Assembly: GCF_003966335.1 (NCBI RefSeq)
Contig: NZ_CP034549.1
Location: 2,040,001 to 2,072,000, forward strand
DNA length: 32,000 bases
Direction of reading: 5' to 3'
Origin: Nonlabens ponticola
GTDB taxonomy: Bacteria > Bacteroidota > Bacteroidia > Flavobacteriales > Flavobacteriaceae
The notes beneath the pieces are model-generated. The model saw only the letters and a program-made list of their open reading frames with translations, did not search any database and was not told the DNA's origin. Both the position numbers and the translations under genes were made by a program. This document shows, one piece after another, positions 5,323 to 30,671 of the stretch (the first letter of the stretch is position 1; every line of letters begins with the position of its first letter).

Positions 5323-5341
5323 TACGCTTTCGCGAAAGCTA
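5323..5341. repeat. Copy of the GCTTTCGCGAAAGC palindrome family (intergenic, between the divergent PRODH gene and aroB)
   Basis: tacgctttcgcgaaagcta. The 14-nt perfect palindrome core lies at 5326-5339. Confidence 0.9.
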
Positions 5342-5379
5342 ACTCAAACACCAACTTTCCTGCATAATCCTATATCCTC

Positions 5380-6450
5380 ATGACCAGTATAATCAGTTCA
5401 AATTATGCCATCCATTTTGCTCAAACGGCCTATACAGAACTCAATAAATTCATCGCAAACAAGCAACCAAGCAGCATTTTTATCCTCGTGGATGAAAATA
5501 CGATGCAACACTGTTATGCACCATTCATACAACAAGTAGAAACTAGTGCGCGTATAGAAGTCATTGAGGTTGAAGCTGGTGAAGAATTCAAGACCATTGA
5601 TACTTGCAGTGGCGTATGGAATGCTCTCATTGAATTAGGTGTTGATCGCAACAGCCTTTTTATAAGTTTAGGTGGTGGAGTTATTACCGATCTAGGTGGA
5701 TTTATAGCAGCAACCATTAAACGTGGTATAGATTTTATTCATGTACCTACTAGCTTGTTGGGTATGGTAGATGCTGCTATAGGCGGCAAGAATGGTGTAG
5801 ATCTAGGTCATTTGAAAAACCAAATAGGTGTGATACAACCACCAGCGATGACACTGGTTGATCCATTGTTTCTGGATACGTTACCGCAACAACAGTTGCT
5901 TAATGGCAGTATCGAGATGTTTAAGCACGGACTCATCGCAGATCGCAGATACTGGGAAAATATGCTGGACCTGCAATTGAATTTTGATCACGACCGTCTT
6001 GATCCATTGATCTATCAATCGGTTGTTATTAAAAATGATGTCGTCATGGGCGATCCTTTTGAAAAAGGTGCTCGCAAATCTCTCAATTACGGTCATACAA
6101 TAGGACATGCTATTGAATCCTACTGCATGAGCAGTCAAGATCACGAGACCTTACTACATGGTGAAGCGATTGCAGCTGGTATCCTTATAGAATCATATCT
6201 AAGCAGCCAGTTTACTGGTTTGAGCGATGCGGATTTTGATCAAATTAAAAAATGGTATCAATCTCTTGAATTGGACATAAAGTTTGATATTAAGGATGTC
6301 GAGGCGATGATTGGACTTATGGCTCACGATAAGAAAAACGTCAATGGCGAGACTAGATTTGTGTTACTGGAAAGCATAGGAGCATTTAAAACAGATTGCA
6401 CCGTTCCTGTTGATGATATTCTTACTGGTTTTAAATTATACCTAAGCTAG
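5380..6450 (+). CDS. aroB: 3-dehydroquinate synthase
   Basis: 356 aa. GGGVITDLGGF, PTSLL..VDAAIGGKNGV and NYGHTIGHAIE are canonical DHQS motifs. Confidence 0.88.
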   Translation: MTSIISSNYAIHFAQTAYTELNKFIANKQPSSIFILVDENTMQHCYAPFIQQVETSARIEVIEVEAGEEFKTIDTCSGVWNALIELGVDRNSLFISLGGGVITDLGGFIAATIKRGIDFIHVPTSLLGMVDAAIGGKNGVDLGHLKNQIGVIQPPAMTLVDPLFLDTLPQQQLLNGSIEMFKHGLIADRRYWENMLDLQLNFDHDRLDPLIYQSVVIKNDVVMGDPFEKGARKSLNYGHTIGHAIESYCMSSQDHETLLHGEAIAAGILIESYLSSQFTGLSDADFDQIKKWYQSLELDIKFDIKDVEAMIGLMAHDKKNVNGETRFVLLESIGAFKTDCTVPVDDILTGFKLYLS

Positions 6451-6522
6451 ATGAAATTGCCATCTAGATTGTGATGTCTCAATATTTTTAATAATTTCCC
6501 ATTTTCAATGTAAACTCTTATC

Positions 6523-6843
6523 ATGAGAAATGTTATTGTAGATTATAAAAAACTTACACCAGACGTCCTGCAGCTACTGGTAGAACGCTATCCTGACGGT
6601 TATGGCGATGACGATGTCATATCGTTTAAGAATCATAAGTATGAGACGATTCACGCCGTCGAGGTTAAGACTGAAGACACTAAATATCTTGTCAAAATAT
6701 CGCAAAAATTAGAAATGCAAATGGAGGCATTTGACGTGGATGATTATGATGACCACCAGATGGACGACCCTGAAGCCCTACCAGAAATGGATCCCAACGA
6801 AGTAGCTGATGACGTTGCAGATGATGAAGCTGACGAAGATTAG
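6523..6843 (+). CDS. Hypothetical small protein with a strongly acidic C-terminal tail
   Basis: 106 aa. The C-terminal 45 aa are rich in D and E (DVDDYDDHQMDDPE...DDVADDEADED). Confidence 0.5.
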   Translation: MRNVIVDYKKLTPDVLQLLVERYPDGYGDDDVISFKNHKYETIHAVEVKTEDTKYLVKISQKLEMQMEAFDVDDYDDHQMDDPEALPEMDPNEVADDVADDEADED

Positions 6844-6872
6844 TTAGCAGTTAGCAGTTAGCAGAAAAATAT

Positions 6873-28173: not shown

Positions 28174-28189
28174 AAATAATAAAGATGTG

Positions 28190-28197
28190 CAAATATA
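28190..28197 (-). promoter_or_regulatory. Bacteroidota -7 box (TAnnTTTG) for the DUF493/DUF4290 operon
   Basis: The minus strand reads TATATTTG, 16 nt upstream of the start codon at 28173. Confidence 0.4.
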
Positions 28198-28246
28198 ATC
28201 ATGGCTAGATCGGGTTGCATCACTCCTATTTAGTTAATTTGTAATT

Positions 28247-28786
28247 GTGAAAAAAATGCAACGCATACTTCTTATAGGTGGCCCAGGAACTGGTAAATCC
28301 ACCTTGATCAATGATTTAGAAAATCGAGGCTTCAAAGTGCATCATGAGATTTCTCGTGAAGTTACCGCGCGAGCACAGCAACAAGGAATAGAGCAACTGT
28401 TCTTGACAGACCCGATGGCTTTTAGCAATCAATTGCTCGCTGGTAGGATCCAACAATTTGTGGATGCTGTGCCTGGAATTAATTTCTATGATCGTGGAAT
28501 TCCCGATGTACCTGCCTATCATAAATTTACCGGCGATCACATTCCCGAGAATTATCTTGAAGCATCCAAAAATTATAAATACGACCAGGTATTTCACCTA
28601 GCACCATGGGAAGAAATCTATGCTCAGGATAGCGAGCGCTATGAGAGTTTTAGCCAGGCCAGTGCGATTGATAAGGCGCTTAAAAACTTTTACCGTGGAT
28701 TGGGTTATGATTTAATCACCATACCTCAAACCACAGTAGAAAATCGAATTAACTTCATACTAGACCATGTAAATCTTGAAGCATAA
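28247..28786 (+). CDS. Small AAA/P-loop ATPase (NadR C-terminal / kinase-like)
   Basis: 179 aa with Walker A LLIGGPGTGKST. GTG start (alternative ATG at 28256). Overlaps recQ by 11 nt. Confidence 0.6.
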   Translation: MKKMQRILLIGGPGTGKSTLINDLENRGFKVHHEISREVTARAQQQGIEQLFLTDPMAFSNQLLAGRIQQFVDAVPGINFYDRGIPDVPAYHKFTGDHIPENYLEASKNYKYDQVFHLAPWEEIYAQDSERYESFSQASAIDKALKNFYRGLGYDLITIPQTTVENRINFILDHVNLEA

Positions 28787-30671
28787 ACCTATTGACATAT
28801 TAAAGCAGGTTTATGGTTATGATCGCTTTAGAAGCAATCAGGAAAACATTATTAACTCTATTCTATCAGGAAAGGACACACTTGCCTTATTACCTACTGG
28901 TGGCGGCAAATCATTGTGCTATCAAATACCAGGATTGGTTCGTGACGGAATTTGTGTAGTCATCTCTCCATTGATTGCATTAATGCAGGATCAGGTGAAC
29001 CAATTAAAGCAACGAGGTATCAAGGCGATAGCCCTGACTGGTGGTATATCGTATCGAGATCTCGATGAAATGCTAGATAATTGCATTTATGGCAATTATA
29101 AATTCCTATATATGAGCCCAGAGCGGCTCAAGCAATCGCTAGTACAAACGCGATTAAAGCGTATGAACATTAATTTGATTGCTATTGATGAGGCGCACTG
29201 TATCAGTCAATGGGGTCACGATTTTAGACCAGCATATCGCGATATAGCGACTCTCAAAGATCTCTTGGGCGATATACCCATGATTGCCGTTACTGCTACG
29301 GCAACACAACAAGTAAGGCAAGACATTGTCAAAAACTTGAAAATTGATGATGCACAGGTTTTTGTTTCCAGTTTCAAGAGAGATAACATTTCCTATCGCA
29401 AGCTTGACACACCCGATAAGCGCATGGCGTTGCTATCGTTTTATAAATCACATAGCGGTAGCTCAATTACCTATGTGCGTAGCAGAAAAAATACTCTTGA
29501 ATTCTCGCACTTACTTAATAATCATGAGATAGCTGCCAGCCAATATCATGGCGGGCTAGATCACAAGACCAGAAACACGGCGGCCCAGCGATGGATGAAA
29601 AATCGAACGCAAGTGATGGTGGCGACAAACGCCTTTGGTATGGGAATCGATAAACCTGACGTGCGCAGCGTGGTGCATTTACAATTACCCGAAAGCATCG
29701 AGAGTTACTATCAAGAAACAGGTCGTTGCGGTCGAGATGGCAAATCCAGCGTCGCTCAATTTATTTATAACATCAATGATTTAAAGCACGCACACAATCA
29801 GTTTATAAAGGCTTTACCTACGGTTGCAATCCTGAAAGAAGTGTACAAAACCCTGCATAATTATTTGCAAGTTGCCATGCATGAAGGCGCAGACACAGTT
29901 CATGACCTATCCTTTGCCATCTACTGCCGTCGCTATAAACATGATCCTACCGTTTGTTATCAAGCCCTACTTACATTGAATCGATTAGGTATCATTGAGT
30001 TTAATCAACAAGGTGGTCGTGGTACGGTATTACGCTTTCGCGAAAGCGTAACAACTATCAATACCTTAACAAGTAATGATCCTAAAACTAGTGCCATCAT
30101 CCAGTCTCTATTGCGCACACACGGTGGCAGTACACAACAAGAAAACAGATTGAATATCGGTATGATTGCAACACGCAGTAATGTGACCGAAGATGAAGTT
30201 GTAGCGTTGCTACAAGCACTAGAGGCTAAGGAACTTATTGATTTACAACTGGGGCAAAGTGATATGCAAGTAACCCTACTTCTCCCAAGAGATGATGATC
30301 ACGCAGTTAGTAAATATGCACCGCTCATAAAGCAACAAAACCAAGTCAAAACGCAACAGTTGCAAGCAATGATGGCGTTATTGCAAGAAAACAAGAAATG
30401 CTTGCAACAAATCATACTAGAATATTTTGATGAAAAGCATAGCACTCCATGCGGTACTTGTTCAAATTGCCTAAAACAAACCAAGTCTCAAAGTCCTAAA
30501 AATATCTCTCTGCAAATTCTAAATATGTTGTCTGGAAAATGCCTAAGCGCACAGGAATTAGTTAACGCATTACATGTCAATCTAGAAGAAGTTCTTACAG
30601 CTGTGAAAAGCCTAATGGAACAGCAAAAAATTACCATCACCTCTCATAATAAATACAAATTGAATGGATAA
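28776..30671 (+). CDS. recQ: ATP-dependent DNA helicase, RecQ family
   Basis: LPTGGGKSLCYQ, IDEAHCISQWGHDFRP, VTATAT, VATNAFGMGIDKPDVR, YYQETGRCGRDG and a C-terminal CGTCSNC zinc motif. Confidence 0.9.
   Translation: MKHKPIDILKQVYGYDRFRSNQENIINSILSGKDTLALLPTGGGKSLCYQIPGLVRDGICVVISPLIALMQDQVNQLKQRGIKAIALTGGISYRDLDEMLDNCIYGNYKFLYMSPERLKQSLVQTRLKRMNINLIAIDEAHCISQWGHDFRPAYRDIATLKDLLGDIPMIAVTATATQQVRQDIVKNLKIDDAQVFVSSFKRDNISYRKLDTPDKRMALLSFYKSHSGSSITYVRSRKNTLEFSHLLNNHEIAASQYHGGLDHKTRNTAAQRWMKNRTQVMVATNAFGMGIDKPDVRSVVHLQLPESIESYYQETGRCGRDGKSSVAQFIYNINDLKHAHNQFIKALPTVAILKEVYKTLHNYLQVAMHEGADTVHDLSFAIYCRRYKHDPTVCYQALLTLNRLGIIEFNQQGGRGTVLRFRESVTTINTLTSNDPKTSAIIQSLLRTHGGSTQQENRLNIGMIATRSNVTEDEVVALLQALEAKELIDLQLGQSDMQVTLLLPRDDDHAVSKYAPLIKQQNQVKTQQLQAMMALLQENKKCLQQIILEYFDEKHSTPCGTCSNCLKQTKSQSPKNISLQILNMLSGKCLSAQELVNALHVNLEEVLTAVKSLMEQQKITITSHNKYKLNG
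30030..30051. repeat. Intragenic full 22-nt palindrome copy, translated as LRFRESVT
   Basis: ttacgctttcgcgaaagcgtaa, in frame within recQ and identical to the intergenic copy at 26288-26309. Confidence 0.9.

Follow-up and report, generated by a model that had tools for sequence, protein, structure and literature searches.

A long, highly iterated palindrome of Nonlabens and Dokdonia and its possible role as a self-DNA recognition signal

Only a handful of lineages are known to carry words that are iterated genome-wide and maintained as DNA, namely the uptake signal sequence (USS) and the DNA uptake sequence (DUS) of two proteobacterial families, HIP1 (highly iterated palindrome 1) of cyanobacteria, and Chi. 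USS in Haemophilus and DUS in Neisseria are clade-specific, asymmetric words of 9-12 nt occurring at about 1 per kb, which arise by in-place substitution in tolerant parts of genes, are enriched between genes, evenly spaced and shared by related taxa, and consist of a core with weaker flanking positions. To our knowledge, all proven uptake sequences are 9-12 nt long and asymmetric. HIP1 (GCGATCGC) is a perfect palindrome, hugely over-represented throughout its clade, which lies in genes in all frames as well as in intergenic DNA, is conserved both inside ORFs and in the DNA separating them (PMC5861425) and between species, shows non-random spacing, and whose function, long unknown, has now been linked to transformation (PMC5861425; bioRxiv 10.1101/2024.09.10.611283; 10.64898/2026.06.24.733823). 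Within the order Flavobacteriales, natural competence with a preference for own DNA is found in Riemerella columbina (PMC7965970). Here, a 32,000-nt stretch of the Nonlabens ponticola chromosome (NZ_CP034549.1, positions 2,040,001 to 2,072,000; hereafter the window) was analysed for the word TTTCGCGAAA, which lies inside the palindrome TnCGCTTTCGCGAAAGCGnA. This palindrome is very probably a clade-specific, highly iterated, DNA-level site that arose in place and is under constraint, and we rank first, tentatively, the reading that it serves as a self-DNA recognition signal in DNA uptake and/or recombination, similar to HIP1 and the uptake sequences.

The monooxygenase and RecQ of the window match N. 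ponticola proteins, encoded on a 2.87-Mb contig, with 100% identity. The window contains TTTCGCGAAA within the palindrome seven times; in addition there are an interrupted copy, a decayed one and a near-match of doubtful status. These features are the following:

1342-1363: doubtful near-match in tsaE, with 13/14 core bases and without canonical arms
5322-5343, strandless: copy TTACGCTTTCGCGAAAGCTAAC in the 98-nt divergent intergenic region that separates the minus-strand proline-dehydrogenase-like gene from aroB on the plus strand
8960-8981: decayed copy TTTTGCGAAA (GTCCGCTTTTGCGAAAGTGGAA) in lysA, reading SAFAKV; the orthologous core is intact in two other Nonlabens species
10780-10801: half-site TACCG-CTTTCGCGAAAG-tttgc, canonical left arm plus core; proposed attL-like left junction of a 4.37-kb insertion
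15163-15184: half-site gcact-CTTTCGCGAAAG-CGGTA, core plus canonical right arm; proposed right junction
18907-18928: intragenic copy in an FAD monooxygenase gene, YAFAKA frame; kept in Nonlabens sp. Hel1_33_55, interrupted in N. agnitus
20455-20476: intragenic copy in the gene of a PLP-type enzyme, ALSRKR frame; three species share the 18-nt run TGCGCTTTCGCGAAAGCG unchanged
22076-22119: interrupted copy ATTACGCTTTCGCG-CCTGCCTGCCGGCAGGCAGG-AAAGCGTAAT, 24 nt past a stop codon
26262-26335: example of the extended unit around the next copy; the 5' flank gattgtagttggttggtag is without C, the 3' flank A/T-rich and G-poor
26288-26309: perfect 22-mer in a tandem intergenic region, 12 nt past the stop codon of an acetyl-CoA synthetase gene
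30030-30051: perfect 22-mer inside recQ, LRFRESV frame; the 16-nt core is DNA-identical in three species

The palindrome family reported in the initial annotation of this DNA proved real, since the 14-mer GCTTTCGCGAAAGC, with at most one mismatch, matched the window at eight positions (1346, 5326, 10784, 15167, 18911, 20459, 26292 and 30034) and had no occurrence across 100 dinucleotide-preserving shuffles of the window. The two 22-nt copies described there as identical are indeed exact matches to the 22-mer TTACGCTTTCGCGAAAGCGTAA, which has 1-3 mismatches at 18907, 20455 and 5322, and the copy described as interrupted is split between CGCG and AAA by the 20-bp GC-rich palindrome CCTGCCTGCCGGCAGGCAGG, which separates the canonical arms. 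The amino acid readings given for the monooxygenase, PLP-type enzyme and RecQ copies, the GCG GAA found where GCG TAA would be expected, and the absence of stop codons from every frame of the 20-mer (by inspection) were likewise confirmed. Some corrections were needed. The copies placed at 10777-10796 and 15168-15187 contain the core but have only one canonical arm each, hence their designation as half-sites above, and the tsaE near-match agrees in the core but not in the arms and may represent a site in decay, a proto-site or chance similarity. The decayed lysA copy is an addition to the earlier list.

The abundance of the word was measured in 118.7 kb of Nonlabens DNA from five loci that were fetched through proteins and not selected for the motif, with expectations computed under Markov orders 1 to 3. 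The 10-mer core occurred 27 times against 0.07-0.24 expected and the 14-mer 23 times against ~4e-4 expected, an enormous excess of the kind that the initial annotation had proposed to look for. Each of these loci carried 4-7 copies per 21-32 kb, or about 1 per 4.4 kb. When one genome per bacterial species was searched with the exact 20-mer, at least 120 loci were obtained, and among the matches listed, one single-copy match in Muricauda apart, every locus came from uncultured Flavobacteriaceae or from the genera Nonlabens (strain BBFL7 included) and Dokdonia. Syntenic DNA of Seonamhaeicola and of Formosa, 22 kb from each, was free of copies and showed no iterated palindrome of another kind (a "dialect") either, though so short a stretch does not exclude one. 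The motif is specific to the Nonlabens-Dokdonia clade. Literature searches did not find the 14-mer or any description of such a repeat for Dokdonia or Nonlabens, and the window gave no match in Rfam at gathering thresholds.

Over 257 sites, the consensus of the left half is TnCGCTTTCG and that of the right half CGAAAGCGnA. The centre is CGCG in 202 of the 206 arm pairs that have a 4-nt centre and is kept as strictly as the arms, while the variable arm position, +-9, forms 50 complementary pairs where 50.3 are expected, that is, without covariation. About 12% of the sites are one-armed. In single-stranded form, the 22-mer adopts a 9-bp stem closed by a CGCG loop (-7.3 kcal/mol), much like the hairpin drawn in the initial annotation. 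Pairing, however, is apparently not the conserved feature: the centre varies no more than the arms, and covariation between the arms is absent. A longer hairpin built by flank pairing was also considered, and beyond +-11 pairing equalled expectation. Conservation of the full 20 bp including the centre, independent variation of the arms, and flank preferences that are mirror-symmetric to about +-26 together suggest a putative dimeric DNA-binding factor that reads the two halves of the duplex.

The element exceeds 22 nt, since a reverse-complement-symmetric composition skew extends over positions -26 to -11 and +11 to +26. On the 5' side, C falls to 2-10% against a background of about 16%, with T and G enriched, and the 3' side has the complementary composition and is A/C-rich. 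The boundary of the skew is sharp at +-26/27, position +-15 accepts the base that is depleted elsewhere in the flanks, and T maxima at -20, -17 and -14 form a 3-nt ripple. Intragenic and intergenic sites alike carry the skew, as do flanks that no open frame touches, and copies on phage contigs show it too, more weakly. Coding sequence or stop codons as the source of the skew and ripple were ruled out by its persistence wholly outside open frames. We know of no description of a strand-symmetric flank skew with a 3-nt ripple for any such motif, and none of the readings proposed below explains it.

Placement was analysed for 258 sites in loci chosen for having a copy, a choice that inflates every density to the same extent. 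Of the sites, 41% fall in long open frames, although such frames make up 87% of this DNA, with all three phases in use (50, 34 and 23 sites), which supplies the intragenic fraction and phase distribution that had been called for. The density per kb was 1.17 in divergent intergenic regions, 0.97-1.49 in tandem regions, 0.71 in convergent regions and 0.136 in genes, intergenic density being about 8x the intragenic one. In tandem regions, the sites lie at a median of 35 nt from the upstream stop codon versus 107 nt to the next start. The copies are single, not paired or clustered, and in the five unselected loci the coefficient of variation of their spacing was 0.59 versus 0.88-0.93 in simulations, only 0.1-0.6% of which were as even.

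To reveal how intragenic copies arose, the three host proteins from the window were aligned with orthologues lacking the repeat. In the monooxygenase, the window reads DRDVLNDYAFAKAENSTLLGD where Flavobacterium reads DRELLKSELLQKASQVTLIGD, with gap-free equivalents in Formosa, Lutibacter and Dokdonia. RecQ has RFRES in 11/11 Nonlabens species aligned, and six outgroup genera have QFI.S and similar sequences without a gap; at the DNA level this site reads GTACAATTTATTATGTCT in Seonamhaeicola and GTACGCTTTCGCGAAAGC in Nonlabens. In the PLP-type enzyme, ALSRKR is replaced by LSKERK, LRKKR or LTASR in closer homologues, again with no gap at the site. The loop insertion for which this alignment had been suggested was therefore absent from all three proteins, and the absence of gaps means that substitution rather than insertion produced the copies where they now stand. 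The comparison with Rickettsia palindromic elements (RPEs) made in the initial annotation does not hold for these copies. RPEs share with them the position of palindromic repeats in frame within protein-coding genes, but are insertions of about 100-150 bp that add residues, whereas the Nonlabens copies add none and their host proteins have the same length as the orthologues at the three sites.

Once formed, the sites are conserved within the genus. Six orthologous intragenic sites (in lysA, parB, recQ and the genes of the monooxygenase, the PLP-type enzyme and a glycosyltransferase) were compared in two to three Nonlabens species, and the 16-nt core was identical at 254/256 positions (99%) versus 973/1440 (68%) in the 45-nt flanks. 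Among the stretches of the PLP-type gene that are identical in all three species, the palindrome-bearing 18-nt run ranks second in length over 1851 aligned nt. The Dokdonia orthologues of six site-bearing Nonlabens genes have no site but only near-matches, for example ALSEVRK and AYTKS. Because the word is common to both genera while these orthologues lack the sites, the sites were gained separately in each genus.

The parB copy lies in the linker region, reads LSRKQ and is conserved in three Nonlabens species:

L121 20969-20990: parB linker copy
L122 18841-18862: parB linker copy
L163 2911-2932: parB linker copy

This copy prompted the idea that the palindrome might itself be parS, whose consensus is TTTC-ACGT-GAAA (TGTTNCACGTGAAACA-like) and which is present in few copies near the origin. 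The identity was rejected, as both sequence (TTTC-GC-GAAA) and spacing differ, which holds for parS/Noc-type sites in general, and extrapolation from the sampled density gives the palindrome several hundred copies in each genome. Canonical parS was absent, at up to two mismatches, from the window, L121, L122 and L163-L166 (21-kb parAB loci among them), and, at up to one mismatch, from the remaining host loci.

Mobile DNA also carries the palindrome. A scan of viral contigs with the 16-mer returned contigs of low GC, each bearing 3-7 copies, at near-host density and in part within structural genes. Two of the matched loci (L152 and L134) belong to one 29.6-kb siphovirus-like contig, on which L152 encodes portal, major head, protease and tape-measure proteins, and three others (L142, L159 and L162) to one 37-kb myovirus-like viral contig, on which L142 encodes terminase, portal, major head and tail-sheath proteins. 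In the cultured phages of INPHARED the word was absent, with only chance 17-nt matches in mycobacteriophages. On two related temperate siphovirus contigs, a copy lies 2-4 nt past the stop codon of a tyrosine-integrase gene and beside a Cro/CI-type module:

L131 10345-10367: integrase-adjacent copy (region 9147-10367)
L128 2730-2752: integrase-adjacent copy (region 2730-3952)

Its position after the integrase gene, the usual place of a phage attachment site (attP), makes this copy a candidate attP that would target the host palindromes.

A second family, consisting of a GC-rich palindrome CCTGCCTG(n)CAGGCAGG, repeatedly interrupts the main palindrome next to its central CGCG and is also found alone, away from it. 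Its copies are the following:

window 22090-22109: CCTGCCTG..CAGGCAGG copy
window 8547-8570: CCTGCCTG..CAGGCAGG copy
L122 6341-6377: CCTGCCTG..CAGGCAGG copy
L122 11110-11146: CCTGCCTG..CAGGCAGG copy
L121 8532-8552: CCTGCCTG..CAGGCAGG copy
L029 7694-7745: CCTGCCTG..CAGGCAGG copy
L078 7013-7032: CCTGCCTG..CAGGCAGG copy

Such an interruption lies upstream of the DSBA gene of N. agnitus, where the Hel1_33_55 copy is intact. In the N. agnitus monooxygenase gene, the second family sits within an in-frame insertion of 84 nt (28 residues), and in the aldose epimerase gene of Hel1_33_55 the palindrome is interrupted by 21 nt in frame. As judged from these sequences, the RPE-like in-frame insertion belongs to CCTGCCTG..CAGGCAGG, not to the main palindrome.

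Between the two half-sites of the window lies an islet (10802-15162) of 4.37 kb and about 33% GC. It carries genes for a GmrSD_N protein (type IV restriction-like), an M23 peptidase and a DUF2200 protein, and has no integrase. The half-sites share the 12-bp core CTTTCGCGAAAG and, when joined, give the 28-bp perfect palindrome GGATACCGCTTTCGCGAAAGCGGTATCC. The islet looks like the product of an integration into a palindrome. A search for the empty site with the rebuilt 28-mer matched one unrelated metagenome contig only, where a TolC-like gene has its own copy. Past the right half-site, at 15372-15517, lies a remnant of the start of a DSBA-family gene. This gene is intact in two other Nonlabens species, where it follows the orthologous palindrome and where homology between the two species starts exactly at that palindrome:

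L121 6466-7116: intact DSBA-family gene
L122 6393-7043: intact DSBA-family gene

Throughout the lysA-DUF808 stretch, gene content is different in all three Nonlabens species. When a second pair of left-arm and right-arm junctions was sought in the loci, the candidate in L029 proved to be an interrupted copy that neighbours an unremarkable acylase gene.

Among the functions offered in the initial annotation, "protein-binding or recombination site" fits these results best. The self-DNA recognition signal in uptake and/or recombination is placed first, as a reading we favour without yet regarding it as probable, because its signature matches that of USS/DUS and of HIP1: a word shared by related genera, sites gained independently, even spacing, intergenic enrichment, and use of all frames in variable protein segments. 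Like USS and DUS, the word is clade-specific and dense, its copies originated in place by substitution in tolerant segments, and it has a core with weaker flanks; like HIP1, it is a perfect, hyper-abundant palindrome in and between genes, whose sites are conserved beyond their surroundings. There are differences too. USS and DUS have a short asymmetric core in one orientation, versus a full palindrome whose half-sites do not occur alone. HIP1 is 8 bp long, versus 20-22 bp here, flanked by about 16 nt of skewed sequence; it exceeds one copy per gene in some cyanobacteria (PMC5861425), versus about 1 per 4.4 kb here; and it is a cyanobacterial word, versus one of Bacteroidota. HIP1 contains known methylase targets, whereas those in the TCGCGA/CGCG centre of the Nonlabens palindrome are putative.

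New copies appear in place by point substitution, where the existing sequence is nearly a match and the protein or regulatory setting permits it, and are then held by DNA-level constraint. If the palindrome is a self-DNA signal, a symmetric, dimeric factor would read both halves of the duplex, biased uptake or selection would maintain the density, and mobile DNA may secondarily have adopted the palindrome centre as an integration point.

Several points weigh against this interpretation. Neither Nonlabens nor Dokdonia is known to have a protein that binds the word, to methylate it, to be competent or to take up DNA with a bias. A perfect palindrome of 20-22 bp is unlike any proven uptake sequence and far longer than HIP1, and its density is several-fold below the roughly 1 per kb of USS and DUS. 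The G/T-rich, C-free 5' flanks with their 3-nt ripple are not predicted by a self-DNA model, and the 3-7 copies on siphovirus-like and myovirus-like contigs would be predicted by an uptake drive only for temperate phages. All counts come from sampled loci, not whole genomes, and the evenness of spacing was calculated from 27 gaps in partly orthologous loci, which are hence not independent.

The first-ranked rival, and the one that agrees best with the flank skew, the insertions and the phage copies, is a Chi-like signal for recombination or break processing, though on the whole we consider it unlikely. A helicase-nuclease or a dedicated nuclease would recognise or cut the palindrome, the G/T-rich 5' flanks would yield 3' tails suited to RecA loading, and phages would copy the signal to escape degradation. 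The skewed part is the portion of the strand that would be left as a 3' single-stranded tail after a central break, the direction of the skew corresponds to C-to-T and A-to-G change or to a G/T preference, and the period of the ripple equals the three nucleotides that RecA binds per protomer. The palindrome centre is moreover the recurrent insertion and junction point, and the phage copies carry the skew as well. Chi sites are over-represented host "self" words in and between genes, lie in G/T-rich DNA, and have in Escherichia coli a density (about 1 per 4.5 kb) similar to that of the palindrome. However, known Chi sequences are all 5-8 nt, asymmetric and replication-oriented, none resembling a 20-bp palindrome without orientation, and a skew that ends sharply at +-26 and spares +-15 is footprint-like rather than what resection damage would leave.

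The palindrome could alternatively be the site of an abundant architectural or chromosome-organising protein with no role in DNA exchange, which we regard as rather improbable. Several hundred extrapolated copies per genome are far above the numbers of parS, Noc-binding sites (NBS) and matS, no candidate protein is known, and the phage copies and the use of the site by integrating DNA would be left unexplained; the lack of canonical parS in the parAB loci carries no weight either way. In its favour stand the symmetric conservation over the full length without covariation of the arms, the even spacing, the positions conserved within a genus and the wide footprint-like flanks, and HIP1 was read in this way from its spacing by Xu et al. 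(PMC5861425).

An attachment or target site for integrating elements as the primary role comes next and is quite improbable. It would draw on the copies 2-4 nt behind the siphovirus integrase genes and next to the Cro/CI-type module, the low-GC islet between two hybrid half-sites with a shared 12-bp core, the break of inter-species homology exactly at a palindrome, and the one-armed fraction of the sites. The comparable case is Neisseria dRS3, repeats of about 20 bp with inverted-repeat ends and several hundred copies, which serve as prophage integration sites and border variable segments, and which are intergenic with a variable centre. The palindrome is like dRS3 in size, copy number and integration use, and unlike it in its conserved centre and many conserved intragenic copies. 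An attachment role accounts for the use of the sites but not for their origin: copies in conserved genes arose by substitution and stay intact, neither even spacing nor several hundred copies would be needed, and the search for an empty site of the islet gave none.

A methyltransferase combined with a short-patch repair bias that would "correct" near-cognate sequences until they match the methylated palindrome, as Elhai proposed for HIP, is very improbable. The TCGCGA/CGCG centre is typical of methylase and restriction targets, and HIP families correlate with orphan methyltransferases (PMC4390886). A specificity of 20 bp plus flanks is, however, far beyond known methylase or Vsr-type sites, TCGCGA outside the palindrome is not enriched (3 in 32 kb versus about 4-5 expected from base composition), and the conserved site positions argue for selection rather than continual replenishment.

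The two remaining explanations are contradicted by the data. That the palindrome is a transcription terminator, as the initial annotation had suggested, or an mRNA-stabilising hairpin is highly improbable: although the stem folds and tandem-region copies lie nearer to the upstream stop than to the next start, the A/C-rich 3' flank has no T-run, density in divergent regions is equal or higher and in convergent regions lowest, intragenic copies are conserved, the loop is as conserved as the stem, no compensatory changes are seen and Rfam gives no match. A transposing, selfish element of the repetitive extragenic palindrome (REP)/REPIN or RPE type, spread by a transposase and inserted in frame, is scarcely credible: REPs, some of them near stop codons, resemble the palindrome in being short, mostly intergenic targets of mobile elements with hundreds of copies (PMC3733652), and other small hairpin repeats occur in these genomes, but REPs are imperfect hairpins with a GTAG/CGTC tag that are usually paired or clustered, prefer tandem and convergent regions and spread by insertion, whereas this palindrome is perfect with a conserved centre and symmetric untagged ends, 41% intragenic, frequent in divergent regions (1.17 versus 0.71 per kb in convergent ones), single and more evenly spaced than random, conserved in position across species, and without an indel at any of the three tested intragenic copies (0/3). 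No gene for a REP-associated tyrosine transposase (RAYT) flanked by the palindrome turned up in about 1 Mb of loci, in which no systematic RAYT search was made.

Further repeats were seen in these loci. The sucC-lysA intergenic region of the window (8170-8860, about 690 nt) is unusually long and dense in hairpin repeats, including AGATGCTGAA..TTCAGCATGACA twice (8409-8440 and about 8500-8530), GTCACCCTGAA..TTCAGGGTCTG, GGCTTAAAAAG pairs at 8586-8633 and a GC-rich stretch at 8630-8700, and it has no Rfam match. A TCACGACTGCA..GAGCTYAGTCGAAG-like motif recurs beside palindromes in the Dokdonia loci L011, L029, L030 and L078, and the 12-mer GAGAATGGAGAA is present 12x in L121, which suggests a tandem repeat.

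Relative to HIP1 and USS, the palindrome is new in being much longer, fully palindromic and flanked by skewed sequence, and in belonging to a new phylum. In its fullest form, which is possible but doubtful, the self-DNA interpretation would make it the first sequence-specific self-DNA signal described for Bacteroidota: a palindromic uptake or recombination sequence of 20-22 bp with G/T-rich, C-free 5' flanks of about 16 nt on both strands, read by a dimeric receptor or nuclease, kept independently in Nonlabens and Dokdonia by biased transformation or recombination, and exploited by temperate phages and islets as a multi-copy integration site.

Each earlier word of this kind opened a view on DNA uptake, recombination or chromosome organisation, and a long, symmetric example in the abundant marine Flavobacteriia would bring the phenomenon to a new phylum. 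The palindrome would provide a concrete handle for identifying its putative reader protein, and it is a ready marker for assigning metagenomic contigs and phages to the Nonlabens-Dokdonia clade. It may also serve as a tool for manipulating Dokdonia and Nonlabens, which are model proteorhodopsin-bearing flavobacteria, and it could account for the discrimination of own DNA in these bacteria.

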